This document shows, in pieces, positions 1 to 64,000 of a stretch of DNA of 64,000 bases. Origin of the DNA: Candidatus Bathyarchaeota archaeon (GTDB lineage: Archaea; Thermoproteota; Bathyarchaeia; Bathyarchaeales; Bathycorpusculaceae). Every line of letters begins with the position of its first letter. The first letter of the stretch is position 1. The position numbers and the translations under genes are program-made. The stretch lies in contig CAWGZR010000009.1 in the NCBI GenBank assembly GCA_963827165.1, forward strand, positions 32,001 to 96,000, read 5' to 3'. The notes beneath the pieces were generated by a model that was given only the letters and a program-made list of their open reading frames with translations, had not been told where the DNA came from and did no database searches.

Positions 1-25
1 AATGCGCGTAGTTTTTTTCTCATGG

Positions 26-982
26 TTATCGTCCAAGGGATTTGAACACTTCAGATAGATCGGGTGCGCGAAAACAGAATCCCTCAATGCTGCCGTACTT
101 TGTAAACTCGCGTAGGGTCTCATCAGGGTTCGCGCCTTTGGCCAAGAATAATGAAATGCCGCTCAAAGTTATGTCGGTACGGGTGACCTGTTGGATATTT
201 TCAACGCCCGAAGCGATTTTTTTGGCAGTTTGCTCGTCGCATTCGACGTCAATGCAACTGCCCGTCCGCCTCACTAGTTCGCGAGGTTCAGCAATAGCTA
301 ACATTACGCCCTCGCCTAAAACTGCGACGCGGTCGCATAAGGCTAGTGCTTCGTCGAGATAATTAGTCGCAACAACGACTGTCTTACTCTTTGATCTGAG
401 AAGGCGAAGGTAAGCCCAAAGCGCATGACGTGTATCTGCGTCAACTCCGAGCGTTGGCTCGTCGATGATGAACAATTCAGGGTCATGAAGGAAAGCTCGG
501 GCAATAGCAGTGCGTCTCTTGAGGCCTCCTGAAAGAGTGTTCACGACTTGGTCGCGCCGGTCTGAGAGGCCAAGAATTTCAAGGACTTCAAGAATCCTCT
601 TGCGCGAATTTTGCACATCGTATAGGCTAGCCGAGAATTTCAGGTTTTCAAAGATGGTTAATTCTTCGTAAAGCGCGTTTTCCTGAAGGACAAAACCCAT
701 TTTTCTTCGAAACTCAGCGGTATGTGTTGGCATCTTTTCGCCTAGCACATTGATCTCTCCCGATGTATGGCTCCGCAACCCGGATATGAGGGAAAGAAGC
801 GTCGTCTTTCCGGCTCCGTTTTTTCCAAGGAGACCCATAATTTCTCCGCGACGGACGTTTAGTGTAATTCCTCGAAGAATGTCTTTGCCTGAAATCCTGC
901 AGTCGACGTCTTGAAAATAAATGACACTATCCTTCATATTTTCTTTCACAATATCAGTAGATTCGGTAATGTCAATACTCAT
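26..982 (-). CDS. ABC-2 type exporter ATP-binding protein (DrrA-like)
   Basis: Walker A GKNGAGKT, signature LSGGLKRR, Walker B IIDEPT. An ATG at 23 (-) may start the permease, which runs off the window. Confidence 0.9.
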   Translation of the reverse strand: MSIDITESTDIVKENMKDSVIYFQDVDCRISGKDILRGITLNVRRGEIMGLLGKNGAGKTTLLSLISGLRSHTSGEINVLGEKMPTHTAEFRRKMGFVLQENALYEELTIFENLKFSASLYDVQNSRKRILEVLEILGLSDRRDQVVNTLSGGLKRRTAIARAFLHDPELFIIDEPTLGVDADTRHALWAYLRLLRSKSKTVVVATNYLDEALALCDRVAVLGEGVMLAIAEPRELVRRTGSCIDVECDEQTAKKIASGVENIQQVTRTDITLSGISLFLAKGANPDETLREFTKYGSIEGFCFRAPDLSEVFKSLGR

Positions 983-50241: not shown

Positions 50242-50814
50242 TTAGTAGTTTTCAACCCAAGCTTCAAAATAGGCTTTCGGATGTGCGCATACGGGGCATT
50301 TTTCTGGCACAGTTTTGCCCTCGAAGACGAAGCCGCAGTTTCTGCATTTCCATTTGATCGGCTGATCTTTACTGAAGACTTTGCCCTGCTGCAGGGTTTC
50401 AAGCAGTTTGTTGTATCTCCGTTCATGGTAAGATTCGACTTTTGCGACCATGCGGAAGGTTGTGCAAACATCTTTGAAGCCTTCACGTTCCGCAACGTCG
50501 GCGAAGTCGGGGTAAAGTTTACCCCACTCAAGTTTCTCCCCCTCTGCTGCCGCCTTAAGGTTTTCAGCGGTTGATCCAGTCATTCCTGCCGGATAGGTGG
50601 CTTTGATTTCAACCATTCCGCCTTTAAGATGATTAAAGAATAGTTGCGCATGCTCTTTCTCGTTGTCTGAGGTTTCTTGGAAGATAGCGGATATCTGCTC
50701 GTATCCTTCTTTTCTCGCTTGGCTAGAGAAAAATGTGTATCTGGTTCTTGCTTGTGATTCGCCTGCGAAAGCTGCTAAGAGGTTCTTTTCAGTTTGGCTA
50801 CCCACAAAATCCAT
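50242..50814 (-). CDS. rbr: Rubrerythrin
   Basis: AFAGESQA, EKEHA, ESYHE and C-terminal CRNC...CPVC; start ATG 50814. Confidence 0.95.
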   Translation of the reverse strand: MDFVGSQTEKNLLAAFAGESQARTRYTFFSSQARKEGYEQISAIFQETSDNEKEHAQLFFNHLKGGMVEIKATYPAGMTGSTAENLKAAAEGEKLEWGKLYPDFADVAEREGFKDVCTTFRMVAKVESYHERRYNKLLETLQQGKVFSKDQPIKWKCRNCGFVFEGKTVPEKCPVCAHPKAYFEAWVENY

Positions 50815-51424
50815 AGTTACAAAACTCCTTAACTCACTTACGGTGCAGTCGAAAAATAAAAGGGTTCCCCGTGGCCTGACGGAAGTCAAAGTATAGGCTT
50901 TTATTTGGGTTGAACTAGATATGTGGTTGCCGAATGATGAGAAGGCATTAGCTTGACATTTATTTGGATGAAAGTTCAGAGTTACTCAGACGGCGACGTC
51001 TGGGAAACTTTATTCAGCGGTTAGCGATAAGGTTTCCCAGGCGAAAACATTACAATTATTTGAAGTTGACTAACTGAAAATGGAAAAGAGAAGTAAAAAG
51101 GTTGTTTGGACCCCAAGAATAGTCCTTTGATACTTTTGGTTGCACACCCCCATGGCATGAGTGGGGACAGTTTACAGTCCGATCCTGCGAGAAGCAATAT
51201 GAATATCAGAATTTGAAATAGGAAAATTTGATCGCTCATATTAATTAATAAAGATTCGCTTGCAATTTTAACGTAAGAAATCGCTTCAATTTAGGAATCG
51301 AATTGTTCAGATTCCGAATATAGAAGTTTCAGTGTTCATAACTCTTTTTTAATACTTACCATCAATCCTGTCCTATGTCACCCAACCGAAGATGGGTTGT
51401 AAAATAGTTTAATTTGAACGCGAA

Positions 51425-51820
51425 ATGGAAAGGAAAAAAATGTTAGAAACAACAAGTGTCATCAAGAACAAAGTAATAATTGAAAACAATTTAATGGCCG
51501 AAGATCAAACAGCAGAAAGAAACGTTAAGACCTTTCTGGATATCGTAATAATGTCATTGCTGAATGGCAAAGCAACATATGGCTACAAAATCATTGCGAT
51601 AGTACACAAAGAGTTTGGCATTTTGCTCAGTCCAGCCACGCTTTACCCATTGCTTCACACATTAGAAGATGAGCAGTTAGTAGAATCCGATTCGGCCGAT
51701 GGGAAAACCTTCTACACATTAACTTTGAAAGGAAAGGCAACGTTTAGGAAGAAATTCATAGCTTATAATTTGTCTACACAAATAATGTGCTCCTTTGTAA
51801 AGAAATGTGGCTCGATCTGA
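51425..51820 (+). CDS. PadR/GvpE-like winged-helix regulator
   Basis: YGYKII, FGILLSPATLYPLLHTLE, YTLTLKG; convergent with the end of the gvp operon. Confidence 0.82.
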   Translation: MERKKMLETTSVIKNKVIIENNLMAEDQTAERNVKTFLDIVIMSLLNGKATYGYKIIAIVHKEFGILLSPATLYPLLHTLEDEQLVESDSADGKTFYTLTLKGKATFRKKFIAYNLSTQIMCSFVKKCGSI

Positions 51821-51841: not shown

Positions 51842-52459
51842 TCAGATTGCGGGCATCAAAACCTCCTCTGATTGCCCAAGCTCTCTTACCACTTCTTCAA
51901 TTTTGCTCTTTAGAGCATCTATTTTCACGGCGCGAATTAATGCTATCTCAGTAACTAATTGATCTTTTATTAAAACCTGAAGTACGCCGCTTCCATCTTC
52001 TACGGTTTCTTCCGTAATAGTTGACAGACCTTTTATTTTGCATATAGATGTTTCAAACAATAGTTCGGTTGGCTTTTTTCTGAATAGAAAAAATCTTTTG
52101 TTCGTTACATAAAGATATCCTGGTCTCCATGTTCCAGAGACTGATTTTTTTTGGCAAAAATAAGAGGCAAACGTCTTTAGAATAATTTTTTCATTTTCAA
52201 ACAATGGAGCTTCTTCTGAACTTTCCGCCAAAACGGTTCTTCTGATCTGTTCATCCCAAGTTCCCATCATCCCGTAATCTATCATTGTAGTCAACCCCGC
52301 GATTGCAGCTTTTAAGTTGATGCCAATTAATGGAACGCCTGAAACTGAAATTATGATATCTGCATTAAGAATTATACCTTTAACCAAGATTCTGTCAATG
52401 AGGTCAACTAGAGCGCCATCCCTTGAGGGTTGCAAGTTAATCTTCTCCGTAATCAGCAT
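51842..52459 (-). CDS. GvpJ/GvpM-like protein fused to a GRAM/PH-like domain
   Basis: LVDLIDRILVKGIILNADIIISVSGVPLIGI; then EKII...GYLYVTNKRFFLF. Confidence 0.78.
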   Translation of the reverse strand: MLITEKINLQPSRDGALVDLIDRILVKGIILNADIIISVSGVPLIGINLKAAIAGLTTMIDYGMMGTWDEQIRRTVLAESSEEAPLFENEKIILKTFASYFCQKKSVSGTWRPGYLYVTNKRFFLFRKKPTELLFETSICKIKGLSTITEETVEDGSGVLQVLIKDQLVTEIALIRAVKIDALKSKIEEVVRELGQSEEVLMPAI

Positions 52460-54362
52460 CTAACAAAATCAACATTTCCCTCAAATTAAGGAACTCCAAG
52501 TTCACGTGGTCATGCGATGCTTGTTCAATTCGTTTTACGGAGGCTTCTAGTTCTTCCTTTTTCTCCTTTGGCAGCTTTTTGCCCAATCGACCTTCCGCGG
52601 CGGAAAGCAGCATTCGGCTCTGGTTTACTCTTTTTATCTTCGTCCTTGTACCTTCCATTAACTTGAGAAGTTGAACGGTCGAAATTTCGATCGTTGTGAG
52701 ATCCTTGTTATTCACATTCTTATTTAAATTGCGTAACGCCAAGTCCAGTTTTCTTTTATCTTTACAAGGGATTCTGCCAGCTTCCTCTTGAAGAAATTTT
52801 TTCACAGCCTGGATAGTTCCCGTTACACAATTTTGGGTTTCGATAAACCCCTTTACTTTCTCATCTGACTCGCTGAACCTAGTCGCTTCGATAATTCTCT
52901 TCATAATTTCATCTTCTGAAAGATTCTTTGTTTCCGCAATCTTGATAGCTTCTATTTTTCCTGTTTCTAAAATTTCTGCGGAGACAGTCAGGATACCGTT
53001 AGAATCTATTTTAAAGGCAACATCCACTTCTTGTTCGTGTTTAGCTCCTTGGGGGATACCTTCAAGCTTGAACATGCCTACAGTGGTGTTATCTTTGGCC
53101 ATTTCGCGTTCTCCTTGCAAGACATGAATTATCATCGACGTCTGGAAATCCTCTTCCGTTGCAAAAGTCATGTTTTCCTCTGTTGGAATTGCACTGTTTC
53201 TTTTAATTAGTCGGGTAAACAGCCCACCAGTTGTCTCCACACCTAAAGATAACGGAGTCACATCTAACAATAACAATTCTTTTATTTCGCCATTTAAGAC
53301 ACAGGCTTCAACACTCGCTCCAGTAGCGACTATTCCCATCGGGTCTATACCTAATTCAGGTTGCGTTTCAAAGTAACTGCCAAAATATTTTCTGACGATA
53401 GGTATTCTAGTTGGTCCTCCGACTAAAATTAGCTTATCAATATCCTCACGGTTTAAGCCTGAATCACTCAAAGATTGCTCTATTGGACCTTGCAGCCTAT
53501 CGAGCTGAGGTTTGATAAGTTCTTCAAGCTTATCACGTGTCAAAGCTATTCTCAGATTTGCGCCAGAGCACTTTGCCTTTACGCCGGTATCTATTGATGT
53601 TGAGACTTCTGTTGAAAGGTGAATCTTCGCCATTTCACCTGCATCTCTAAGTTTGCTTAGTCTCCTCTTATCATTCTCCAAGCAAATTCCGTACTTCTCT
53701 TCAATTTCTTCAACAAGATAGTCTAAAATTTCGTCATCCATGTCCTTACCGCCCAAATGAACATCGCCGCTGGTAGAAAGAACATGGAATAGCCCGTTGT
53801 TTATGTCCAGAATGGTAACGTCAAAGGTTCCGGCGCCCAAATCAAGCACTGCGATCTTAAGATTTTTTCCTAATTTGGCCATACCATAAGCTAACGAAGC
53901 TGCTGTGGGTTCGCTGACTATCCTCAAGACTTCAAAACCGGCTATTTCCCCGGCTTCTTTTGTTGCATTTCGTTGATTGTTGTTGAAGTAAGCGGGCGCC
54001 GAAATTACTGCTTTATCTATTTTCTCGCCCAAATAGGTTTCAGCGTCTTTTTTTATCTTCTTCAATATAAAAGCTGATATTTGTTGAGGGTTATATGACT
54101 GACCATTTATGTTCTCACAATGATCTGTACCGATTTTTCTTTTAATCCACTTGACAGTTCGATCAGGATAATCGTAAGAATATCTCTTTGCATCTTTTCC
54201 CACTAGAACTTCACCGTCATCTTTGAAAGCAACAATTGAAGGTACCATTTTCCCGTAAGCGGTTGGACCTTCTGCGGCTGGAACTATCCTTATTTTTCCT
54301 TCTTTCATCACAGCACCTGCAGAGTTGGAGGTCCCAAGATCGATTCCAATCGTTCGTCTCAT
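52437..54362 (-). CDS. dnaK: DnaK/Hsp70 paralogue inside the gas vesicle operon
   Basis: IGIDLGTSNS, PAYF, EPTAA, DLGAGTFD, LVGGPTRIP, LLLDVTPLSLG; start ATG 54362. Confidence 0.93.
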   Translation of the reverse strand: MRRTIGIDLGTSNSAGAVMKEGKIRIVPAAEGPTAYGKMVPSIVAFKDDGEVLVGKDAKRYSYDYPDRTVKWIKRKIGTDHCENINGQSYNPQQISAFILKKIKKDAETYLGEKIDKAVISAPAYFNNNQRNATKEAGEIAGFEVLRIVSEPTAASLAYGMAKLGKNLKIAVLDLGAGTFDVTILDINNGLFHVLSTSGDVHLGGKDMDDEILDYLVEEIEEKYGICLENDKRRLSKLRDAGEMAKIHLSTEVSTSIDTGVKAKCSGANLRIALTRDKLEELIKPQLDRLQGPIEQSLSDSGLNREDIDKLILVGGPTRIPIVRKYFGSYFETQPELGIDPMGIVATGASVEACVLNGEIKELLLLDVTPLSLGVETTGGLFTRLIKRNSAIPTEENMTFATEEDFQTSMIIHVLQGEREMAKDNTTVGMFKLEGIPQGAKHEQEVDVAFKIDSNGILTVSAEILETGKIEAIKIAETKNLSEDEIMKRIIEATRFSESDEKVKGFIETQNCVTGTIQAVKKFLQEEAGRIPCKDKRKLDLALRNLNKNVNNKDLTTIEISTVQLLKLMEGTRTKIKRVNQSRMLLSAAEGRLGKKLPKEKKEELEASVKRIEQASHDHVNLEFLNLREMLILLDADYGED

Positions 54363-54381
54363 CGAAATTCCCCCAAGATTG

Positions 54382-55362
54382 TTAGTTAATTCTTTCCTCG
54401 ATGAGAAAATTCTGTTTAACTTGGCTTTCCTCAAGTGAACAAAGATAGTGTTCACAGTATCTCGTTAGGAGAGATTGGGCTTCTCTAATTTTCTTGAACT
54501 TATTTTCACAAGATGGTTTATTTCGATGAAGGTCAGGATGATATTTTCGTACCAGAATGTTATATGCTGAATTAATCTCGGATATGCTTACTTCTTGACC
54601 TAATCCTAGGGTTTTTCTTGCATCGTCTAACTCGTCAAAGTTCATTTTTTTTACGCAGATTTTGGTAAAATTGTAAGCTGGCAAGTGACCTACTGAGAGA
54701 AACTCAAGCCTGCCGGCGTATTTTTCTTCCAACTTGTTTAATCTTTCGTTAAAATCTTGCTCGCGGTTTTTATCAATTAGAAAAGACATATTCGTTAGTG
54801 TATCTTGATCTTCGTTTTTGTTCTCTTCAGAATCCAACAAAACGGTTCCAAGTGAATGTTCTATGTCGGTTATGTATTCAAGTTTCTTTTCATCAAGGGC
54901 TTCCTTCACTTTTTTGCCTAGCTCAACTCTGAGGGTTTGATCATTATTTTTCTTAGATGCTTCGACCAGTTCTTTGATATGTTTGTTTTCGTTCAGGACG
55001 TATGCAAGGATGGTTTTGTTCCATGATATTTTAACGTTAATTTGTAATTTGTTGTCAACTTTTTCTAAAGTTTTCTTAAATTGCATTTTGCCTCGTTTTA
55101 GAATATTCTTTATTTCTTTTTCGTTTTTAGCCACTAATCCGAAACCCATTGGAATTAACGAGTATGGATCCATGATTTTACATAATACCTTTTCATGTGT
55201 TTTCGCTTCTTCGATGCCAATTCTGCAGTTGTCAAAAACGTCACTAACTACAGCACCCAGCTCTCCAAATTGGACAATGTATGTTTCGCCATTTCCAACT
55301 CCGATGTTTCCGAACGTTTTCTTGTTTTCAGAATCTATAATTCCGTAAATGTATTTTGCCAA
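54382..55362 (-). CDS. GvpF/GvpL-family protein with a C-terminal DnaJ J-domain
   Basis: YIYGII, HEKVL, IPMGFG, AYNF; then ARKTLGL...AYNILVRKYHPD...FKKI. Confidence 0.88.
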   Translation of the reverse strand: MAKYIYGIIDSENKKTFGNIGVGNGETYIVQFGELGAVVSDVFDNCRIGIEEAKTHEKVLCKIMDPYSLIPMGFGLVAKNEKEIKNILKRGKMQFKKTLEKVDNKLQINVKISWNKTILAYVLNENKHIKELVEASKKNNDQTLRVELGKKVKEALDEKKLEYITDIEHSLGTVLLDSEENKNEDQDTLTNMSFLIDKNREQDFNERLNKLEEKYAGRLEFLSVGHLPAYNFTKICVKKMNFDELDDARKTLGLGQEVSISEINSAYNILVRKYHPDLHRNKPSCENKFKKIREAQSLLTRYCEHYLCSLEESQVKQNFLIEERIN

Positions 55363-55367
55363 ATTTT

Positions 55368-56174
55368 TCAGTTCTCCTTAATTTTTGACTCGTTCATTTG
55401 TCCTGAGAAAGAATATGGCGGCCAAGGTCCAGTGAATCTAACGTCGAAGCCGTCATTCACAAACTTGGCTAATATGTTTCCTAATTCCTCAATTTTTCCC
55501 GTGTAAGCAAGACAGCTCATGTTAAGAATCATTTGTTTGTCTTTCCACTTTTCGGGAACTTCTTTGTTTGTTGAAGAAAGCTTTACCTCATCGACCAGAT
55601 TCTCGATTTGAACGCAAATATTTTTTGTGAATTTGTTTATGACAAGTTGTTTTTCAACCTGTATTTTTTGGTCTAGCTTTTTCCCCAGAAGGTAGGCTGC
55701 GCCGCCGCATGATTTTTTCAATTTCTCTTTTAAAGACTGTATTTCTTGATTTTCATTTAGTAAATCATCAAGATTTTGGTTCTTAAGGAAGATCTGAATT
55801 CCATATTCGGCTTTTCCTTCCAATCTGGCGAACAACTTTTTGAGCTGAAAGTACTGCTCAGATAACCACTTTCCGAGAGTTTCGTCGTTGCCTTTGAAGA
55901 TTGTGTCGAATGTCAACGGAATAACCGTTCCATATTCCTCTGTTGCCAAGTCAATTACATATTGATGCGCCAAAATCCACTCACCCGCTTTTTCTTTCGA
56001 TTTAGTTTCGTACGGTTTTGCTTTACACGAGTGAATGACCAGCCCCACGTCTTGAAAAGCTACAACTCTTACTTCATTGTCTTCAACGCCTATTGGCCGA
56101 AAATCATTTGCGTTTCCATTATTGATAATACAATAGACGTATTTTCCTTCTTCGAAACTATTTTCTTGAATCAT
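55368..56174 (-). CDS. gvpL: Gas vesicle protein, GvpL/GvpF family
   Basis: YVYCII, HQYVID, IPLTFDTI, GAAYLL, RFTGPWPPYSF. Confidence 0.85.
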   Translation of the reverse strand: MIQENSFEEGKYVYCIINNGNANDFRPIGVEDNEVRVVAFQDVGLVIHSCKAKPYETKSKEKAGEWILAHQYVIDLATEEYGTVIPLTFDTIFKGNDETLGKWLSEQYFQLKKLFARLEGKAEYGIQIFLKNQNLDDLLNENQEIQSLKEKLKKSCGGAAYLLGKKLDQKIQVEKQLVINKFTKNICVQIENLVDEVKLSSTNKEVPEKWKDKQMILNMSCLAYTGKIEELGNILAKFVNDGFDVRFTGPWPPYSFSGQMNESKIKEN

Positions 56175-56488
56175 TGGGTAACACCTTTATTGTCTATGTT
56201 TTCAGGATCAGTCATTATATTGATGGTATCTTCCACCATTCGGTCGAGGTCAGTCCTCAAACATTTAACAACAGATTGAAGACTGTTTTCTTCCTTGATG
56301 TGCTCAAGCGCATGATCAAGTTCCATCAACCCATTGCCCAATCTTTCAACTTCGTACTCGTCTAATCTGCCTGACTCCATTCTTCTCACAGCTTCTTTTT
56401 CAAGAACTTCCTGGATAACTTCAACTAAAGTGACAATAACTCCGAGAAGACCGGTTTTCAGGTCTTGTTCATTAATTTCTATTGGCAT
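56171..56488 (-). CDS. gvpK: Gas vesicle protein GvpK
   Basis: GLLGVIVTLVEVI, EAVRRMESG, VERLG. Confidence 0.9.
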   Translation of the reverse strand: MPIEINEQDLKTGLLGVIVTLVEVIQEVLEKEAVRRMESGRLDEYEVERLGNGLMELDHALEHIKEENSLQSVVKCLRTDLDRMVEDTINIMTDPENIDNKGVTQ

Positions 56489-57014
56489 GTGATTCCTCCT
56501 TCGTGCTTAGTTTTACCTCCAAGACACTGTTGTGAAGGTTTTTTTCAATTTTGCCAATGACTGAGCAGGGCAAATGAACTTCTTTGTAATATTCTTTCCC
56601 AGATATTATTAGACAAGACTCAGTCAATCTCAATTGTACAAATTTCTCCGTCGAAGGGAGCGCGGCAATGACCCTTACTAGATTTTCCTCTTCTATTACA
56701 TCTATAAGCTCCTCTGCACGAACTTTGCTGGCGAAATCTTCATCTACCCACCAGCTGAACATGATTTTTTGACCAGTTAACCGATCTATCTTCGACTGCT
56801 GGAAAGAAAGGATTGGTTTACCAATGATCTCTTTGGCAGTTGGGTTGATGATTTCTCTTATGATCAGAAGAACTTCCATATCTGAGGATGCGCACAGCAG
56901 ATTCGATAAATCTCTTAGCTCTGCATGACTCTCGTTTAATAGGAACATTGTCATCTTTCTGCTTTTCTCGTCCAAAACATTAAGGAGCAAATCAAGTTTG
57001 GTCAAAGCGCTCAA
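56472..57014 (-). CDS. GvpH-like protein (C-terminal Hsp20/alpha-crystallin-like domain)
   Basis: IDVIEEE...VIAALP...KEVHLP...NSVLEVKL; N-terminal HTH-like segment. Confidence 0.6.
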   Translation of the reverse strand: MSALTKLDLLLNVLDEKSRKMTMFLLNESHAELRDLSNLLCASSDMEVLLIIREIINPTAKEIIGKPILSFQQSKIDRLTGQKIMFSWWVDEDFASKVRAEELIDVIEEENLVRVIAALPSTEKFVQLRLTESCLIISGKEYYKEVHLPCSVIGKIEKNLHNSVLEVKLSTKEESHANRN

Positions 57015-57397
57015 TTCTGTACCCCCAATTTAACTCCAACTTTCATAGCTTTTTCTTTCTGCGATCTGGCACTTTCCCATCCGCACCAAGGACATGCAAA
57101 GTTCAATAATTCGTTTCTGTTAACGTCTTTTCCACATTGAGGGCAATCTTCTTTTTCGATACTAACGTCTTTCCAAGCGATTGTTTCCAGATTGGTTCCC
57201 GATGGAAATTCTAGCCCATATTTTGCTGCGGTCTCAAATGAAGCGAGTGCAGCTCTGATTTTTATTCCCAGCAGTTCCACTCCAGCAACGCTGATTGCAA
57301 TATCTGCGTTAATTACCAATCCCTTATCCAAGATTCTATCGATTGCTTCGGCTAAACCCGAATTCTCTTTTTCTGGTCTTAATGCTAAATTCGTCAT
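57011..57397 (-). CDS. gvpJ: GvpJ with a C-terminal Zn ribbon
   Basis: LAEAIDRILDKGLVINADIAISVAGVELLGI, ASFETAAKYGLEFP, CPQC...CPWC. Confidence 0.88.
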   Translation of the reverse strand: MTNLALRPEKENSGLAEAIDRILDKGLVINADIAISVAGVELLGIKIRAALASFETAAKYGLEFPSGTNLETIAWKDVSIEKEDCPQCGKDVNRNELLNFACPWCGWESARSQKEKAMKVGVKLGVQN

Positions 57398-57415
57398 ATT
57401 CTTAATCTCCTGATT

Positions 57416-57760
57416 TTAGTATTGAATTCCGCCACACCAAGGACACTCTCTTTCATGTTCTTCCCCAGTGGATTTTCTACCGCACTTTCGACAGATCTGC
57501 AACATTGACATGGCTTGCCATGCTTGCGCCTCTAGATTAGTATTTGCGGGAAATTTCAAACCCAGCTTTTTTGCTGTCTCAAAGGAAGAAAGAATTATGC
57601 GCGACTTAGTGTCTAAAAGACTGATGTCACTAATTCGAATCTTCGCAGCCGCGTCTATTATGACACCTTTGTCCATTATCACATCTAATAGACTGTTCAA
57701 GGTGGCCTCTCGTGATTTACTGAATACCAAAAAAGACCCCCCTTGCACGTTGATAGACAT
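57416..57760 (-). CDS. Divergent GvpJ paralogue with a Zn ribbon
   Basis: LLDVIMDKGVII, SSFETAKKLGLKFP, CRKC...CPWC. Confidence 0.8.
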   Translation of the reverse strand: MSINVQGGSFLVFSKSREATLNSLLDVIMDKGVIIDAAAKIRISDISLLDTKSRIILSSFETAKKLGLKFPANTNLEAQAWQAMSMLQICRKCGRKSTGEEHERECPWCGGIQY

Positions 57761-57881
57761 GTTCTTTTCTTTGAAAAACGGTCAACTCCGATCCGATGTT
57801 TCCGTTACCAAATAGGTTTTCGAAACTATTCCATCTGCCTGATTTTTGTACTTCTTTCAATACATTCGCTTCCTACAATAT

Positions 57882-58172
57882 TTAGCCTAAAATGTTAATT
57901 CTTTGACTTGGACGAACTATGTTTAACCTTTTATTTGTCATCCGTTGGTGACAAAGTGCATTGTTGCGTTCTTCATATTCTTCCTGAGTTTTCTCGCCAA
58001 GTTCATAGAGGAGTCTATTTTCTCTAAGTTCATTGTTAATTCTTTGCTGATTTTCATTAACTCTACCTTCATCGGCATAATCCATTATAGTCTCCATTAG
58101 CCAAACCATGTCAAATGGTGGCACAGAAAGACCCAACATTTCCAGGAAAAGATCATCTATAAAAAAGGGCAT
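57882..58172 (-). CDS. gvpG: Gas vesicle protein GvpG
   Basis: FFIDDL, ENRLLYELGE.TQEEY. Confidence 0.82.
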   Translation of the reverse strand: MPFFIDDLFLEMLGLSVPPFDMVWLMETIMDYADEGRVNENQQRINNELRENRLLYELGEKTQEEYEERNNALCHQRMTNKRLNIVRPSQRINILG

Positions 58173-58176
58173 TCGA

Positions 58177-58836
58177 CTACACCCGTTTCTTCTTTACTTC
58201 TACACCTTCTGCACCTATCTTTATGTACACAAAGTTATGTGGTGCCCAGGGTCCACTATATAGAAACTTTAGCGTTGAATATTTGGTCTGAAGTCTTTCA
58301 ACTTCCTCTGAGAATGAACCTATCAATTCTTTCCCGACCAAAAAAGACGCGTTTAAAACAAGTCTTTCGCTGAACAAGCCACATGCGACTGCTTCCTTGG
58401 ACTTAGATTTCAGAGATTCTAATATTTCTGAAACCATTGTTTCTTTCTGTTCTGCATCTACAAAAGCAGTTTTGTCGGTTCTAACAATCTTTACCCCGAG
58501 TTCAACCATATTTTCGACTACTTTTAGAGATTCTAAAGCAGGGCTATAGGCCTTCTTAATCAAGCGTTTCAAGATTATGTCATTTTTTATTGTTGTTCCA
58601 AATTCAGTCGGGACAACTGAGTATTCATTCATTATTTCTTGAACAACTTTCTCATGTTTCTTTGTATTATTTTCGGTCAACTCGTAGTCTGTCATCGGAG
58701 AATCGCTGACAACTGCCGCAATGCCGCCGCAGGGAATGGTAAAAACTTCCTTGTCATTCAAGCCTATCTTGCCGAAGTTTCTTTCTTCAGAGCATTTTAT
58801 TACGCAGTAAAAATATTTTCCTTGTTCCTTATCCAT
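58177..58836 (-). CDS. gvpF: Gas vesicle protein GvpF
   Basis: YFYCVI, AVVSD, HEKVV, VELGVK, LNASFLV, YSGPWAPHNFV. Confidence 0.88.
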   Translation of the reverse strand: MDKEQGKYFYCVIKCSEERNFGKIGLNDKEVFTIPCGGIAAVVSDSPMTDYELTENNTKKHEKVVQEIMNEYSVVPTEFGTTIKNDIILKRLIKKAYSPALESLKVVENMVELGVKIVRTDKTAFVDAEQKETMVSEILESLKSKSKEAVACGLFSERLVLNASFLVGKELIGSFSEEVERLQTKYSTLKFLYSGPWAPHNFVYIKIGAEGVEVKKKRV

Positions 58837-58847
58837 TTGACAAACCT

Positions 58848-59669
58848 CTAGATTTCAAGTTCTTGTTTCAGGTAATGGTTCAGAACAGAATGAGCTTGAA
58901 TATGTTCATGAACCAAGTTTCTTATTCTTGGTTTGGCATCTTCAACCGGGCCATAAACTATTTCTTTGCCTGATTTTTTGAATGCCAGTAACCCTTTTTG
59001 CTCCAGCGAATGAAGCAACGGATATATTGTTCCTGGACTAAGTAGCACGTTAAACTTCAAATGTATGGTTCCTATTATTTCAGTTCCACACATCATGTCC
59101 TTCTGAAGAATGGCTAAGATTACATTTTCTAAGTTATCCTTTACTATTTTTTCAACAGACTTGCCCGACAATTCAGATTCATTGAAGAAGTCTCCAGACA
59201 ATATTGTCAAATCACTTGTCGTCAAACGAAGCTCATTATGATACGTAGCTAACTGCTTGATTTTTTCAAAGTTGAATTTTGTAAGGTCATAAGTACATAA
59301 GCAGTTTAAGTTGCTGCCCCGGCATAATTCGTTTAGATAACCCTCTCTTTTTTCAATTTCAGCACATTTTTCGTTAGCTAATGACCCCGCGTCAATTATA
59401 AGCTGCAAATCATTGTCTTCGCTGTTGAGTTCGTAAAGTTCGCTTGAATTAATAATCTTCAACTGAATGCTTAAATGATTGAACTCTTCCGTTAGCAATG
59501 AGCTGTCGTCTCCAGTAACATAAATTATTCTTTGGTTTGCTCTGGAAGGAATCAAGAATGCGTTTTGGATCGAATACTTATCTACATTTGGAGCATAAAG
59601 ATGCAGGGCATGTTTTGAATTAGTTCCGCAGATTTTCAGGGATTCCATAGGCAGATTTTTTGTGTACAT
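58848..59669 (-). CDS. MEDS-like sensor domain fused to a GvpE/PadR-like DNA-binding domain
   Basis: HALHLY, E..LN, CLCTYD and ATYH (MEDS-like); IVKDNLE...CG.EII...LLSPGTIYPLLH (GvpE-like). Confidence 0.75.
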   Translation of the reverse strand: MYTKNLPMESLKICGTNSKHALHLYAPNVDKYSIQNAFLIPSRANQRIIYVTGDDSSLLTEEFNHLSIQLKIINSSELYELNSEDNDLQLIIDAGSLANEKCAEIEKREGYLNELCRGSNLNCLCTYDLTKFNFEKIKQLATYHNELRLTTSDLTILSGDFFNESELSGKSVEKIVKDNLENVILAILQKDMMCGTEIIGTIHLKFNVLLSPGTIYPLLHSLEQKGLLAFKKSGKEIVYGPVEDAKPRIRNLVHEHIQAHSVLNHYLKQELEI

Positions 59670-59689
59670 TCAGTTTCCTTCCTTACCTC

Positions 59690-59971
59690 TTACTCCTCTA
59701 TCTCAGACGCAATTCGATCACTGCGTTTTCTGACCATTTTCTGTGTCCAGCCAATTACTTTCCCTTCTTCATCTAGTCTTATTACATATCTTGCGAGAAG
59801 ATCTTGTGTGTCCGGTATGGATTTTCTCTGCAATACTTCGACGGTGACTGCCCATTCGCCATTTTTCTCTTTGATATCTACAATGGTTTCAGGGTTTTTG
59901 GAGAGAAACCTTTTTGCCGCGTCAAGAGCAACTTCTGTAATCTTAAAAAGCGAAAGCTTATTTTGCGTCAT
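59690..59971 (-). CDS. gvpO: Gas vesicle protein GvpO
   Basis: WAVTVEVLQRKSIPDTQDLLARY.I.LD. Confidence 0.9.
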   Translation of the reverse strand: MTQNKLSLFKITEVALDAAKRFLSKNPETIVDIKEKNGEWAVTVEVLQRKSIPDTQDLLARYVIRLDEEGKVIGWTQKMVRKRSDRIASEIEE

Positions 59972-59998
59972 TTTCGTTTGCTCTCCTCTTCAAAACCC

Positions 59999-61060
59999 CT
60001 ACGGTTGGCAAACGCCGATTTCTGGAACTATAAAATCGGGGCTGTTTTTCTGTATGTTAACGTGGGCATCGCACAGTATTTCTCTAATGAAATCAATTTT
60101 GTCAGGGATCTCCACTGGATTACCTATTTTTGTTGCGAGCACATCTAAGCAAATTTGTTCAAAGTCTTCTTTGGAATAATTACCCATTGCTTTGAGTCCT
60201 TTAGAAATCATGATTTCTGCACGTGTACCAGGCTTGTGAGGATCAGGCAATTCTTTTCTTAGGGAACGAACGATTTTGACAATATTTTTTGCCTCGACCA
60301 CTGATATGTGGGAATGTGCTCTGACTATTTTCACTTCGGTGTCAAAGTCGTAATAGTCCATGTGAAGATCGATCATTCTGTCCAACAGGGCGTCTTGTGG
60401 TCTATGAACTCCCGCGTATTCAACAGAGTTACTTGTGAATATTACCTTAAAGTCTGGATGAACTTTTACGTATCTTTCGTCTCCGAACATCGTTGGAAGT
60501 TCTAAAACGTGTTCCTCTAATACTGATAGAAGAACATTGTTGGCTTCGGGCTTTGATCTTGAAAACTCGTTGTAAACTAAAGTGTAGCCGTATTTGCATG
60601 CGAGCGTAAGCGGATTGTCAACCCACCTATATTTTGTCTTATCCTTAGTCACCCTGACGTTATGGATATATTTGTCCACTAGACTTTCGGCTTCCATTTC
60701 TGAGTATCCACCGATTAAGTCGGTTGTTGTAATCTGATCGTCGCCGTTTATCCAAACTGTCGGTCGGCCCAATTCTTTTGCCACTTGCATGGCCATCGTT
60801 GTCTTTCCGCAACCAGTAGGTCCTACGATATGAGGGTGACATGAAGCTTTAACCCATAATCTGATTCTGTCTTTTAATTGTCTAACTTGATCGGTTTCAA
60901 TAAAACTTTCAATCTTGGGAGTTAAGAACTCTGTCTCCACTCGATCTATGGAGAGTTCCGCTTGTTTCGTTTCATCAGAAATCTTGGATTGTCTTTCTTC
61001 CAAAGTTTCATGAACCCGTTTTCCACGGACAACTCTTTGATGAGTCGGCATATATTTCAA
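59999..61060 (-). CDS. gvpN: Gas vesicle AAA+ ATPase GvpN
   Basis: GPTGCGKT, WVDNPLTLAC, YNEFSRS, TSN.VEYAGVH, QDALLDR. Confidence 0.95.
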   Translation of the reverse strand: MKYMPTHQRVVRGKRVHETLEERQSKISDETKQAELSIDRVETEFLTPKIESFIETDQVRQLKDRIRLWVKASCHPHIVGPTGCGKTTMAMQVAKELGRPTVWINGDDQITTTDLIGGYSEMEAESLVDKYIHNVRVTKDKTKYRWVDNPLTLACKYGYTLVYNEFSRSKPEANNVLLSVLEEHVLELPTMFGDERYVKVHPDFKVIFTSNSVEYAGVHRPQDALLDRMIDLHMDYYDFDTEVKIVRAHSHISVVEAKNIVKIVRSLRKELPDPHKPGTRAEIMISKGLKAMGNYSKEDFEQICLDVLATKIGNPVEIPDKIDFIREILCDAHVNIQKNSPDFIVPEIGVCQP

Positions 61061-61111
61061 TTCTAAATTCCTCGGTTTTTTCTTGTAAGAACGTGTATCT
61101 CGACAATTCCT

Positions 61112-61159
61112 TTTAAGGAATATTCAGATATTCGTTACGAAAACTGTATCGAAAAGCGA
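61112..61159 (-). promoter_or_regulatory. gvpN promoter element shared with the gvpA promoter
   Basis: + strand TTTAAGgAATATTCAGA-N17-GTATCGA....CGA. Confidence 0.65.
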
Positions 61160-61261
61160 AAACTATCTAGAAGGTTTCTCTATCTGGGTCAAAACAAGAT
61201 CTTGGTGAAAACGCTTAATCAAACCTTGATTTGGAGGTCTCGATGAAAGAAAAAAAAGGGC

Positions 61262-61432
61262 TCAATTTTTCAAGGCTTTTTCTTTTTTGAGATCATTTAC
61301 CCATAGCATACGTACTCGCTGTGGACGAGGCACGACTGAACAGTATTGTACCATTTCTCTGTGTTTTCTTAACCACTGTATTTTCTTATCCCTTTCTTGT
61401 GCATTAACAGCACTTTTCGGCATTTTTGACAA
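61262..61432 (-). CDS. Uncalled 56-aa basic protein (possibly GvpI-like)
   Basis: MSKMPKSAVNAQERDKKIQWLRKHREMVQYCSVVPRPQRVRMLWVNDLKKEKALKN; GAGGTGA RBS; T-tract after the stop. Confidence 0.65.
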   Translation of the reverse strand: MSKMPKSAVNAQERDKKIQWLRKHREMVQYCSVVPRPQRVRMLWVNDLKKEKALKN

Positions 61433-61536
61433 ACTACTTCACCTCTTAATTAATCAGTTTCTTGAATGTTAATTTTGATTATATTAATAGGAAAATATGG
61501 AGAAGAGGAACAGCTTATTCTAAGGATGAGTGGAGC

Positions 61537-61911
61537 TCATCCATAGAACTGTTTCGTGTATTCGCGTTGTTCTTTCACTTGTTTGGCTATGCTAGCTTGC
61601 ATGGCAGCAATACCGGATACCATTTCAGCGACGCCTGAACTAAGGTTGTTGGAACCTTCTGCATGCATTTTGATTGCGGCCTTTTGGAAATTGGCGCTGG
61701 TTTTTTGAATGCTTTTTTGCATGTCGCGAACGCCTGAATTAAGGTTGCTGATACCTGATGCAAGCATCTCGTTGGCGGCTTCTTGGAAATTGACGGCGGT
61801 TTGCTTGTAAAGCGTTCTTTTGCCATTTACGCTATTCGGGTTTGGTTTTGTTTCTGTTTTCGTTGGTTCAGCTGTTGTCACTGTTTGTTTTTTCGGTTTT
61901 TGTTTAGACAT
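61537..61911 (-). CDS. GvpC-like helical repeat protein
   Basis: Two 33-aa repeats (KQTAVNFQEAA.../QKTSANFQKAA...), ends FYG, located between gvpA and gvpN. Confidence 0.65.
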   Translation of the reverse strand: MSKQKPKKQTVTTAEPTKTETKPNPNSVNGKRTLYKQTAVNFQEAANEMLASGISNLNSGVRDMQKSIQKTSANFQKAAIKMHAEGSNNLSSGVAEMVSGIAAMQASIAKQVKEQREYTKQFYG

Positions 61912-61949
61912 TTATTATTCAACTCAACTTTGTTCGTTTTTTTGCAGAT

Positions 61950-62177
61950 TTAGGAGGCTGGAACAGGAGCGGCTATTGCTGCTTGTTCGACCTTTGTGAT
62001 CTCTTCCGCGTAGTGTAGGAATGTATCTACTGAAGCGACTACCACTCTAGCTTCGATGGTGAGAATTTCAATTCCAACCAGTGAAGCTCTTGCCCAAGCA
62101 TCGACGACTATTCCTTTATCCATTATGCGATCAATTACTTCTGCCAAACTACCTGAATCTGGACTTTGTTGCACCAT
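61950..62177 (-). CDS. gvpA: Major gas vesicle shell protein, copy 2
   Basis: [48 protein letters not shown]. Confidence 0.97.
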
Positions 62178-62256
62178 TTTTAATTCACCTCACGATTTTT
62201 CGGTTTTTGTTTAGACATTTATTATTCAACTCAACTTTGTTCGTTTTTTTGCAGAT

Positions 62257-62484
62257 TTAGGAGGCTGGAACAGGAGCGGCTATTGCTGCTTGTTCGACCT
62301 TTGTGATCTCTTCCGCGTAGTGTAGGAATGTATCTACTGAAGCGACTACCACTCTAGCTTCGATGGTGAGAATTTCAATTCCAACCAGTGAAGCTCTTGC
62401 CCAAGCATCGACGACTATTCCTTTATCCATTATGCGATCAATTACTTCTGCCAAACTACCTGAATCTGGACTTTGTTGCACCAT
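62257..62484 (-). CDS. gvpA: Major gas vesicle shell protein, copy 1
   Basis: Identical to copy 2; GAGGTGA RBS. Confidence 0.97.
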
Positions 62485-62763: not shown

Positions 62764-63351
62764 TTGATGTGGCTGATCTGTCGAATGACTTTCAGAAAAG
62801 GCATAACCAAATTACTGGTCCGAGGCATAGACGGTGCTGGATGGGTTTTTTGCCCGATGATAAAAAGCATAAAGAACGACAAAGTATCTCTACAATGCTG
62901 CAACAAATGTACCCAATTTATTCGTTTCGAACACAACTCCTTTCACCAGATAGCCGCCACTGGAAGACCAAGATTTATTCCGAATCATGTGGGTCGATCT
63001 CATTTCAGCAGGCCTACATCAAAACGAAAATGTTTCCCAATTTCCACAGTGCCGAGGCAGTATCCATCGTCAATTAGTTTTAGAGGAGAAAAGCAGCCAA
63101 TTGTAGACGTCTTTGAAGAGGAAGATAGCGTAATAATTTTAGCGGAATTACCCGGGATTGAAGAGAAAGACATAGACCTGCAAATAGAGGAAAACTTTGT
63201 AACAATTATTGCAGAAAACGCAACTAAGAAATATTTAGAAAAGAGAAAACTTCCAACACGAATCACTGGAGATCCGGTGAAATTCATTTACAGAAACAAT
63301 ATATTGCAAGCAAAACTGAAAAAATCTGTAAAAAATTCGCCAAATGCCTGA
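62764..63351 (+). CDS. Hsp20/alpha-crystallin domain protein with a Cys-rich N-terminus
   Basis: PIVDVFEE, AELPGIEEKDI, YRNNILQAKL; N-terminal FCP...CCNKC. Confidence 0.75.
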   Translation: MMWLICRMTFRKGITKLLVRGIDGAGWVFCPMIKSIKNDKVSLQCCNKCTQFIRFEHNSFHQIAATGRPRFIPNHVGRSHFSRPTSKRKCFPISTVPRQYPSSISFRGEKQPIVDVFEEEDSVIILAELPGIEEKDIDLQIEENFVTIIAENATKKYLEKRKLPTRITGDPVKFIYRNNILQAKLKKSVKNSPNA

Positions 63352-63412: not shown

Positions 63413-64000
63413 TTAAGTTCTAGCGTCGAATCCAATTGAGATTTTATCTATTGTTTCCATGAGTTTACGCAGACCTGATTCAATATCACCTTTTGACATA
63501 TGCAATATTATTTGTGAAGTCCCCTTTTTCAATCCAGCCACTTGATGGCAGGTTTCACAACTCCATTTTCCTTTTTCAAAGCTCTTGCAAGCCAAAAGTA
63601 TTTCAGCAGCGTTCATCAGTTCGCGTGCTTTTGATGCTTTTTCTGTCAAGTTTTGTGCATGATTTATTTGGTTAGTAAGCTGTTTAATTGCCTGATCCAT
63701 TTTTGTGAAATTCGCACAGCTTGTTAGGTCAGGTTGTTTTTTTACTTTGAAGCCTGATGAATTTATAGCGACTTCGATACCCACAGAGTGGCAGATTTTA
63801 TAGTATTTTCGTGCCGCGCCCAAAGGACTATCTTGGCGAAAGCTTTCGATCAGACCAGCTTGTTCGAGGATGCTTAAGTGTTTGAGAATCGCCGGTTGTG
63901 TAATCTCCAATTCCTTTGCAATTTCAGATATGTAGTGTGGTTCTTGAGAAAGGAGAGTGAGTATTTTTCGCCTCGTTTCGTTTCCGACTATTTGTAGAAA
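63413..64000 (-). CDS. ArsR-type HTH regulator (Phr/COG1777-like), 5'-truncated by the window edge
   Basis: Frame is open to the window end: GNETRRKILTLL..PHYISEIAKELEITQPAILKHL..LE.AGLI...ARKYY. Confidence 0.8.
   Translation of the reverse strand, partial: FLQIVGNETRRKILTLLSQEPHYISEIAKELEITQPAILKHLSILEQAGLIESFRQDSPLGAARKYYKICHSVGIEVAINSSGFKVKKQPDLTSCANFTKMDQAIKQLTNQINHAQNLTEKASKARELMNAAEILLACKSFEKGKWSCETCHQVAGLKKGTSQIILHMSKGDIESGLRKLMETIDKISIGFDART

Follow-up and report, generated by a model that had tools for sequence, protein, structure and literature searches.

In Halobacterium, GvpF binds monomeric GvpA and GvpL binds GvpJ and GvpM, according to the 2022 review by Pfeifer (PMC9501494). 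For the Bacillus/E. coli system, a 2024 EMBO J interaction study (PMC11445434) puts forward GvpF as a transient GvpA2 chaperone, with GvpL acting together with GvpS, GvpK and GvpJ. How the very hydrophobic proteins of the GvpA family are kept soluble and inserted into the growing gas-vesicle shell is an open question, and the current models, as outlined there, invoke a passive GvpF chaperone (PMC11445434). Here we describe a gas vesicle (gvp) cluster of a Candidatus Bathyarchaeota archaeon, found in a stretch of 64,000 nucleotides (nt) of contig CAWGZR010000009.1 (hereafter the window). The cluster carries a gene for a GvpF-like protein that ends in a J-domain (GvpF-J, or the fusion), directly followed by a gene for an Hsp70. 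We consider it reasonably probable, judging from gene content and conservation, that the cluster encodes a dedicated, largely self-sufficient Hsp70/J pair for gas-vesicle biogenesis, acting on proteins of the GvpA, GvpJ and GvpM types.

The open reading frames (ORFs) of the window between 48 and 64 kilobases (kb) were listed in all six frames; 20 were scanned against Pfam and 12 against NCBIfam. Region 51842-62484 on the minus strand proved to be a gvp cluster of 16 genes, with gvpA and gvpN, F, G, J, K, L and M-type genes all on one strand. The gene order is A-A-x-N-O-(regulator)-F-G-J-J-H(Hsp20-like)-K-L-fusion-Hsp70-M, no intergenic gap from gvpN onward exceeds 121 nt, and overlaps occur in four gene pairs. 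This order is collinear with gvpAAA-NOFG-JHKLM of Methanosarcina barkeri as given in Table 1 of the Pfeifer review (PMC9501494). Unlike the euryarchaeal clusters (M. barkeri and the haloarchaeal gvpACNO/FGHIJKLM), the window has GvpF-J and Hsp70 between gvpL and gvpM, a PH/GRAM-like domain on its GvpM-like protein, and a PadR-type gene between gvpO and gvpF.

DnaK, DnaJ and Hsp20 have no occurrence in the text of the review and neither DnaK nor DnaJ appears in its cluster table, which fits the statement of an earlier, sequence-only reading of this DNA that the studied gvp clusters are not described with an Hsp70; nor do that text and table record a J-domain fused to GvpF/L (PMC9501494). In the genome paper of Psychromonas ingrahamii, two DnaK-like genes (1232 and 1233) are reported along with a gvp cluster at 1248-1262, and no link is drawn between them (PMC2405808). 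Our full-text literature search, with subscription journals and preprint supplements outside its reach, gave no description of an Hsp70 or J-domain in a gvp cluster, or of gas vesicles in Bathyarchaeia.

The primary structure of the fusion was examined. It consists of a GvpF-like region (residues 1 to ~240), a J-domain (~245-303) with the HPD motif at 275-277, and a Cys/His tail. The N-terminal 240 residues are a GvpF/GvpL domain as in the proteins of Microcystis, Anabaena and Halobacterium: they match GvpL_GvpF (PF06386) with 169.7 bits over model positions 2-244 of 245, and positions 3-238 of the family profile match the GvpF crystal structures 6L5D (Anabaena, E 6.4e-29) and 4QSG (Microcystis, E 1.9e-24). 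With NCBIfam models the domain was closer to GvpF (E 2e-20) than to GvpL (E 4e-10). The cluster keeps ordinary genes at the gvpF position and for GvpL, the fusion being a third paralogue with a J-domain and a conserved Cys/His tail. The J-domain matches PF00226 with 44.9 bits (cut-off 27.8) and contains the motif 'KYHPDL'; profile positions 252-303 match J-domains of E. coli DnaJ, including 5NRO chain B (E ~1e-12). Two alignments, one with 15 and one with 45 sequences, show no variation at H275, P276 and D277. In a large protein search with the fusion, 196 proteins were found at E 0.001, and all 120 homologues among the matches listed contain HPD together with both PF06386 and PF00226.

The fusion is not a full co-chaperone of the class A or B DnaJ type. 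Its J-domain is C-terminal, followed by ~25 residues, it matches DnaJ models over model positions 4-54 only, and neither a G/F region nor a zinc-finger domain was found in it by Pfam and NCBIfam scans. Because these two elements are missing, we assign it to the class-C J-proteins of the accepted classification scheme. A complex prediction with the GvpF-like domain (1-240) and GvpA, run without controls, gave a best score of 0.30 against a mark of 0.32. We also found a near-invariant sequence 'YCEHYxC' after the J-domain ('YCEHYLC' in the window, 54382-54460 on the minus strand), comprising residues 302-309 of the fusion (Y302, C303, E304, H305, Y306 and C308), which could be a metal or redox site.

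Concerning the neighbouring Hsp70, its longest ORF begins with GTG at 54455. As homologues begin M-x-R-T-I-G-I-D-L-G, we place the start at ATG 54362, which leaves a spacer of 19 nt after the stop of the fusion (54382). At the other end, the Hsp70 stop (52437-52439) lies inside the GvpM-like gene that starts at 52459, an overlap of 23 nt. The protein has the nucleotide-binding domain, linker, substrate-binding domain and a divergent helical lid of the Hsp70 family (PF00012). Its best solved match is the Geobacillus kaustophilus DnaK 2V7Y, with which it aligns end to end (residues 1-511, E 3e-141, spanning the linker LLLLDVTPLSLGVET), and its domain architecture and motifs are those of this Gram-positive/archaeal short type. 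The 17 cluster copies compared keep 'GIDLGTxNS', 'DLGaGTFD', 'EPTAA', 'LVGGPTR', 'LLLDVTPLSLGVET' and 'HVLQGER', motifs for which we presume the customary names and roles. With ATP-binding motifs, hydrophobic linker and substrate-binding domain kept in 17/17 copies compared, the cluster Hsp70 looks functional. The sequence-only reading had described a full-length DnaK paralogue inside the gvp operon, overlapping a GvpJ/M-like gene and lying 19 nt from a GvpF/L gene that ends in a J-domain with an intact HPD. Each of these features was borne out.

We then surveyed the distribution of the pair. Among 401 sampled genomes of the class, which were searched for the fusion and for GvpA (PF00741), the fusion was present in seven, including the genome of the window, and PF00741 was found in exactly the same seven; at the genus level the gvp cluster was present in 2 of 41 sampled genomes, again counting the window's own. 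Searching 16-20 kb around the six other class matches by tblastn with the cluster proteins of the window revealed that the gene order was kept and that Hsp70 directly followed the fusion in 6/6. A single-protein query of genome contigs with the fusion gave no loci. An alignment-based scan with one genome per species then gave 16, both of its search patterns being family-specific, so that distant or bacterial fusions lie beyond its reach. Fifteen of these loci are titled Candidatus Bathyarchaeia/Bathyarchaeota and one Micrarchaeota, which may be a matter of binning, and in 16/16 Hsp70 directly follows the fusion. As five of these 16 coincide with loci from the class sample, 17 distinct loci are available besides the window. 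The order of the cluster genes is conserved in them, and fusion-then-Hsp70 occurs in 17/17, at identities to the window of 31-67% for the fusion and 47-72% for Hsp70. In two of them (L045 and L048) the Hsp70 match ends at the end of the contig. The adjacency of fusion and Hsp70 is not a chance juxtaposition. The co-occurrence survey and the linkage elsewhere that the earlier reading had proposed to check thus came out in its favour, with fusion, Hsp70 and gvp genes together in all 17 loci and in 7/7 gvp-bearing genomes of the class.

The cluster copy is not the only dnaK of the genome; had it been the only one, this would have counted against the earlier reading. A grpE-dnaK-dnaJ operon is present at 242102-244893 of the contig, ~156 kb from the gvp cluster (~83800-94500 on the same contig). 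This is where the genome's grpE and canonical dnaJ are found, in agreement with the earlier observation that neither is adjacent to the cluster Hsp70. In the 17 related loci, searched only with the cluster proteins of the window as queries, no grpE or full dnaJ was seen beside the cluster Hsp70 either. The two Hsp70s of the genome differ in score. Whereas the housekeeping DnaK, used as a control, passes both DnaK equivalogs of NCBIfam (NF001413 and TIGR02350) with 850.4 and 845.6 bits, the cluster Hsp70 fails both (630.4 against 648 and 625.8 against 822.55, respectively). It also fails the HscA equivalog TIGR01991 (466.4 bits against 708.55), and a protein-atlas search with it returned generic DnaK clusters only.

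A maximum-likelihood tree of 66 rows was constructed with the quick search of IQ-TREE (LG+G4). The rows were 16 cluster Hsp70s, five housekeeping DnaKs of these genomes and, for the nearest clusters at 50% identity, 45 representatives; the contig-truncated copy of L048, the frame-split copy of L040 and five duplicate loci were left out. The sequence-only reading had asked for such a tree to see whether this copy is separate from housekeeping dnaK, and it is. All 16 cluster Hsp70s group in a single clade with a support of 90 in the Shimodaira-Hasegawa-like approximate likelihood ratio test (SH-aLRT), rising to 100 when representatives P0126 and P0127 are included, and the five housekeeping DnaKs form a clade of their own (SH-aLRT 99). 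Both clades, and hence both copies of the window's genome, fall inside a well-supported group of 31 rows whose internal branching the tree leaves open. There are 23 fixed differences between the two clades. By score, clade and context, the cluster Hsp70 falls outside the housekeeping DnaK family; it lies below the equivalog cut-offs, belongs to a separate clade, is never beside grpE or full dnaJ, and has a divergent lid. We also considered a recent duplication of the host dnaK as the origin of the cluster Hsp70; this was ruled out because the clades are separate and the cluster clade has relatives from outside. As a separate observation, the housekeeping DnaKs (L001 and relatives) have 'FSFGGGThD' where the cluster Hsp70 has the usual phosphate-binding motif 'DLGaGTFD', so that in this respect the housekeeping copy is the odd one.

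Genome G008 (locus L020; by its quality figures 100% complete with 1% contamination) bears on whether the pair can work alone. Here the cluster pair comprises the only Hsp70 and the only J-domain, and GrpE was not found in this genome. Taking into account that Hsp70 is present in only 295/401 class genomes (154/220 of the high-quality ones), the absence of a second Hsp70 is plausible. The window's own genome (94.5% complete) and four other genomes checked have exactly two J-domains each, those of dnaJ and of the fusion. The situation in G008 and the J-domain counts argue that the partner of the fusion would be the neighbouring Hsp70, and that the pair may work without a nucleotide-exchange factor. 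HscA is a precedent, as it works without GrpE.

Among known systems, the best analogy would be HscA/HscB with IscU, in which a special Hsp70 and a class-C J-protein are likewise encoded beside client genes, in the isc operon, apart from DnaK, DnaJ and GrpE; G008, with the pair and no GrpE found, resembles HscA in this respect too. The window differs from that system in that the client-binding part of its J-protein has the GvpF fold rather than the helical domain of HscB, and in that the presumed client is a structural shell protein and not a cofactor scaffold. A second analogy is offered by auxilin/GAK, in which a J-domain is fused to a coat-binding module and Hsc70 uncoats clathrin. There too, a J-domain on a coat-binding module brings Hsp70 to a self-assembling shell. 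Unlike the fusion, auxilin is eukaryotic, has an unrelated coat and unrelated binding domains, and acts in disassembly.

We propose the following mechanism. The GvpF-like domain of the 326-residue fusion would bind a hydrophobic protein of the shell family (GvpA, or the GvpJ or GvpM nucleators), as GvpF and GvpL do in the studied systems. The C-terminal class-C J-domain would dock through its HPD motif on the adjacent cluster Hsp70 and trigger ATP hydrolysis. The Hsp70 would then clamp the client and keep it soluble, or remodel it, until its handover to the growing vesicle. Since GvpF binds GvpA, GvpL binds GvpJ and GvpM, and a chaperone role towards GvpA2 has been proposed for GvpF, the simplest task for a J-domain on a GvpF-like body would be to deliver a client of the A/J/M family to Hsp70. 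The sequence-only reading had gone as far as a private Hsp70 recruited by the fusion to the GvpA shell for its assembly or disassembly. The second Hsp70 copy in the genome, the separate clade and the conserved linkage support the private character of the chaperone. We infer the binding of the J-domain to the cluster Hsp70, the identity of the client, GvpA included, and the choice between assembly and disassembly or recycling.

Several points weigh against a dedicated assembly pair. Across the cluster Hsp70s, the last ~130 residues (the lid) are poorly conserved, and in L040 (11001-12924) the Hsp70 match is split between two frames at ~11647, reflecting either a sequencing error or a decaying gene. 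As a contrast group, a sample of 401 genomes of the phylum yielded five more gvp-bearing genomes, from other classes. They have one GvpF/L gene each, none of the five has a J-domain or Hsp70 near its gvp genes, and any Hsp70 found in these genomes lies elsewhere, next to a full dnaJ. The gvp clusters of the model systems form gas vesicles without such a pair, as far as the cluster table of the review covers them (PMC9501494). As all five gvp clusters of other classes lack the pair, it is an accessory and not a core requirement, and the module belongs to the cluster type of Bathyarchaeia rather than to gvp clusters generally. Moreover, gas vesicles as the product of the Bathyarchaeia cluster are predicted from its genes, the client may be any of GvpA, GvpJ or GvpM, and the J-domain could act also on the housekeeping DnaK where one exists.

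The last point leads to a different account, in which the fusion mainly recruits the housekeeping DnaK and the neighbouring Hsp70 is a redundant stress paralogue hitch-hiking on a mobile gvp island. A housekeeping copy is indeed present in five of the six gvp-bearing class genomes checked (of seven), the cluster is sporadic, as seen in the genus sample, and its GC content of 0.37-0.41 lies below the 0.42-0.49 of the surroundings. We nevertheless regard this account as improbable. Adjacency is maintained in all 17 loci while fusion identity falls to 31%, G008 has no other Hsp70, other J-domain or GrpE, and the cluster Hsp70 clade bears long, conserved, type-specific differences from the housekeeping clade (the 23 fixed positions). 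A pair with regulatory function appears more improbable still. Its target would be a cluster regulator (the 273-residue PadR-type protein, or the flanking PadR or Phr-like proteins), kept in check through its activity or stability, as DnaK does with sigma-32 in E. coli. The cluster and its flanks do have three conserved helix-turn-helix (HTH) regulators, yet no regulator domain is fused to or overlaps the pair (Pfam), and the partner to which the J-domain is joined is GvpF-like, a kind of domain known to bind proteins of the shell family (PMC9501494).

Of the alternatives, we give most room to a role in clean-up, although we think it unlikely. The pair would act with the two Hsp20-fold proteins to extract, disaggregate or recycle GvpA-family protein from collapsed or misassembled vesicles, on the model of sHsp-Hsp70 disaggregation or auxilin-Hsc70 uncoating. 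Two Hsp20-fold genes do accompany the cluster, the J-domain is joined to a shell-protein binder, and a 2026 bioRxiv preprint on how cells respond to vesicle collapse mentions DnaK. Sequence offers nothing that separates clean-up from assembly. On the other hand, the pair lies among early assembly genes (gvpK, L and M) and is translationally coupled to the GvpM-like nucleator gene, and no ClpB-type AAA+ disaggregase was seen in the cluster by Pfam. A dedicated pair for vesicle biogenesis remains the reading that we prefer.

We next consider the third gene next to the pair. The GvpM-like protein carries behind its core a C-terminal PH/GRAM-like domain with the motif 'TWRPGYLYVTNKR' (gene 51842-52459, minus strand). 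A tblastn match extends past the GvpM core in 15/17 related loci, and only the core is matched in L053 and L054. A metagenome scan with P0127 gave two loci, L055 and L056, the latter a partial match of 33%. L055 is a 6.5-kb metagenome contig whose Hsp70 is 61% identical to P0127. Its layout differs from that of the window's cluster: a PH/GRAM-like protein truncated by the contig end, a two-domain ArsA ATPase, GvpF-J (332 residues) and Hsp70 (566 residues), in overlapping genes. The fusion of L055 is 43% identical to that of the window, the 'YCEHYxC' tail included, and the first ORF (1-834, plus strand), in which the domain is present twice, has 41% identity to the PH-like half of the GvpM-like protein in the window. 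With a PH-like ORF beside GvpF-J and Hsp70 in L055, GvpM-PH appears to travel with the pair, and the PH/GRAM-like domain may be a third part of the module.

A bolder proposal, in which we place slightly less than even trust, is that the gas vesicles of Bathyarchaeia are built with the help of a two-part Hsp70 machine that is self-sufficient, requiring no GrpE or other J-protein, and that travels as a three-gene unit (GvpF-J, Hsp70 and GvpM-PH) inserted at the gvpL-gvpM junction of a cluster otherwise of euryarchaeal type. If true, archaea would here have their first organelle-specific Hsp70 system, and gas-vesicle assembly would include an ATP-driven chaperone step for which present models have no place. 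Lineages that possess no further Hsp70 would then keep the pair solely for building one organelle. The union of a GvpF-like protein with a J-domain, its Hsp70 invariably adjacent, makes the chaperone question directly testable. As heterologous expression of vesicles is reported to cause proteotoxic stress (PMC12848028), a cluster-encoded Hsp70 pair could also interest engineers of acoustic reporter genes. The cluster further predicts gas vesicles, and hence buoyancy control, in uncultured soil and sediment Bathyarchaeia. In a sequencing-run search, which listed no RNA holder, the holders of large shares of this DNA were labelled soil metagenome.

The genes of the cluster and its immediate flanks are listed in the table.

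Genes of the gvp cluster and adjoining genes in the window (positions of the window; aa, amino acids)
Feature	Position	Strand	Basis
gvpA copy 1, 75 aa, major shell protein	62257..62484	-	Pfam Gas_vesicle E 6.5e-14; 77-99% identity to GvpA of related loci
gvpA copy 2, 75 aa	61950..62177	-	Pfam Gas_vesicle E 6.5e-14
124-aa protein, position of GvpC in other clusters	61537..61911	-	no Pfam/NCBIfam match above cut-off
gvpN, AAA+ (MoxR-type) ATPase	59999..61060	-	Pfam AAA_5 E 5e-20; 55-93% identity in related loci
gvpO	59690..59971	-	Pfam GvpO E 7.1e-18
273-aa putative cluster regulator, C-terminal PadR-type winged helix, weak MEDS-like N-terminal part	58848..59669	-	Pfam PadR E 3.5e-6, MEDS E 0.0013
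GvpF/L paralogue, gvpF position, 219 aa, upstream of gvpG	58177..58836	-	Pfam GvpL_GvpF E 4.2e-40; GvpF and GvpL not separated by NCBIfam
gvpG	57882..58172	-	Pfam GvpG E 2e-7, 31.5 bits (cut-off 30.6)
GvpJ-like, 114 aa, zinc-ribbon-like tail	57416..57760	-	Pfam Gas_vesicle E 2.7e-6; NCBIfam halo GvpJ E 4.3e-13, rubrerythrin-like zinc ribbon E 3.7e-4
GvpJ-like, 128 aa, zinc-ribbon-like tail	57011..57397	-	Pfam Gas_vesicle E 2.3e-16; NCBIfam halo GvpJ E 1.1e-29
Hsp20-fold, 180 aa, gvpH position	56472..57014	-	no Pfam match; NCBIfam archaeal Hsp20 NF041800 E 4.4e-11 (residues 100-176), below curated cut-off
gvpK	56171..56488	-	Pfam GvpK E 5.9e-19
gvpL, 268 aa	55368..56174	-	NCBIfam gas_vesic_GvpL equivalog 217.6 bits (cut-off 200); Pfam GvpL_GvpF E 1.6e-56
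GvpF-J fusion, 326 aa	54382..55362	-	Pfam GvpL_GvpF E 1.5e-49 and DnaJ 44.9 bits
Cluster Hsp70, 641 aa from ATG 54362	52437..54362	-	Pfam HSP70 E 4.8e-172
GvpM-like core (residues 10-73) and C-terminal PH/GRAM-like domain	51842..52459	-	NCBIfam halo GvpM E 4e-25; Pfam Gas_vesicle E 1.1e-12, bPH_3 E 0.0095
Hsp20-fold, 195 aa, divergent, beside gvpA	62764..63351	+	NCBIfam archaeal Hsp20 NF041800 E 2.7e-22; Pfam HSP20 E 0.0023; both below cut-off
HTH regulator, ArsR/Phr-like, flanks cluster	63413..63910	-	Pfam HTH_5 E 2.6e-5; NCBIfam Phr heat-shock regulator E 1.1e-9, far below cut-off
PadR-family regulator, convergent with cluster end	51425..51820	+	Pfam PadR E 3e-12

The 124-residue protein after gvpA is matched by tblastn at the same place in several related loci, and its position alone suggests a GvpC-like role. 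The 273-residue PadR-type gene is found between gvpO and gvpF in 17/17 related loci, its product being a candidate regulator unlike the haloarchaeal GvpD and GvpE. Both Hsp20-fold genes counted by the sequence-only reading are real, with scores below the curated cut-offs, and they match each other in BLASTP (E 2e-7); only one of them belongs to the cluster proper, the other lying beyond its gvpA end on the plus strand. The latter protein has a Cys-rich N-terminal part. Together with the ArsR/Phr-like HTH gene it flanks gvpA, and in several relatives both genes are again found next to the cluster. For the HTH protein, the weak match to Phr hints at control of the heat-shock type. At the opposite end, the convergent PadR-family regulator occupies the same place in most related loci. 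A rubrerythrin gene (50242-50889, minus strand) adjoins the cluster there, and a gene with 80% identity is found at the same place in G187, a genome of the same genus; the cluster therefore occupies the same chromosomal site in both genomes.

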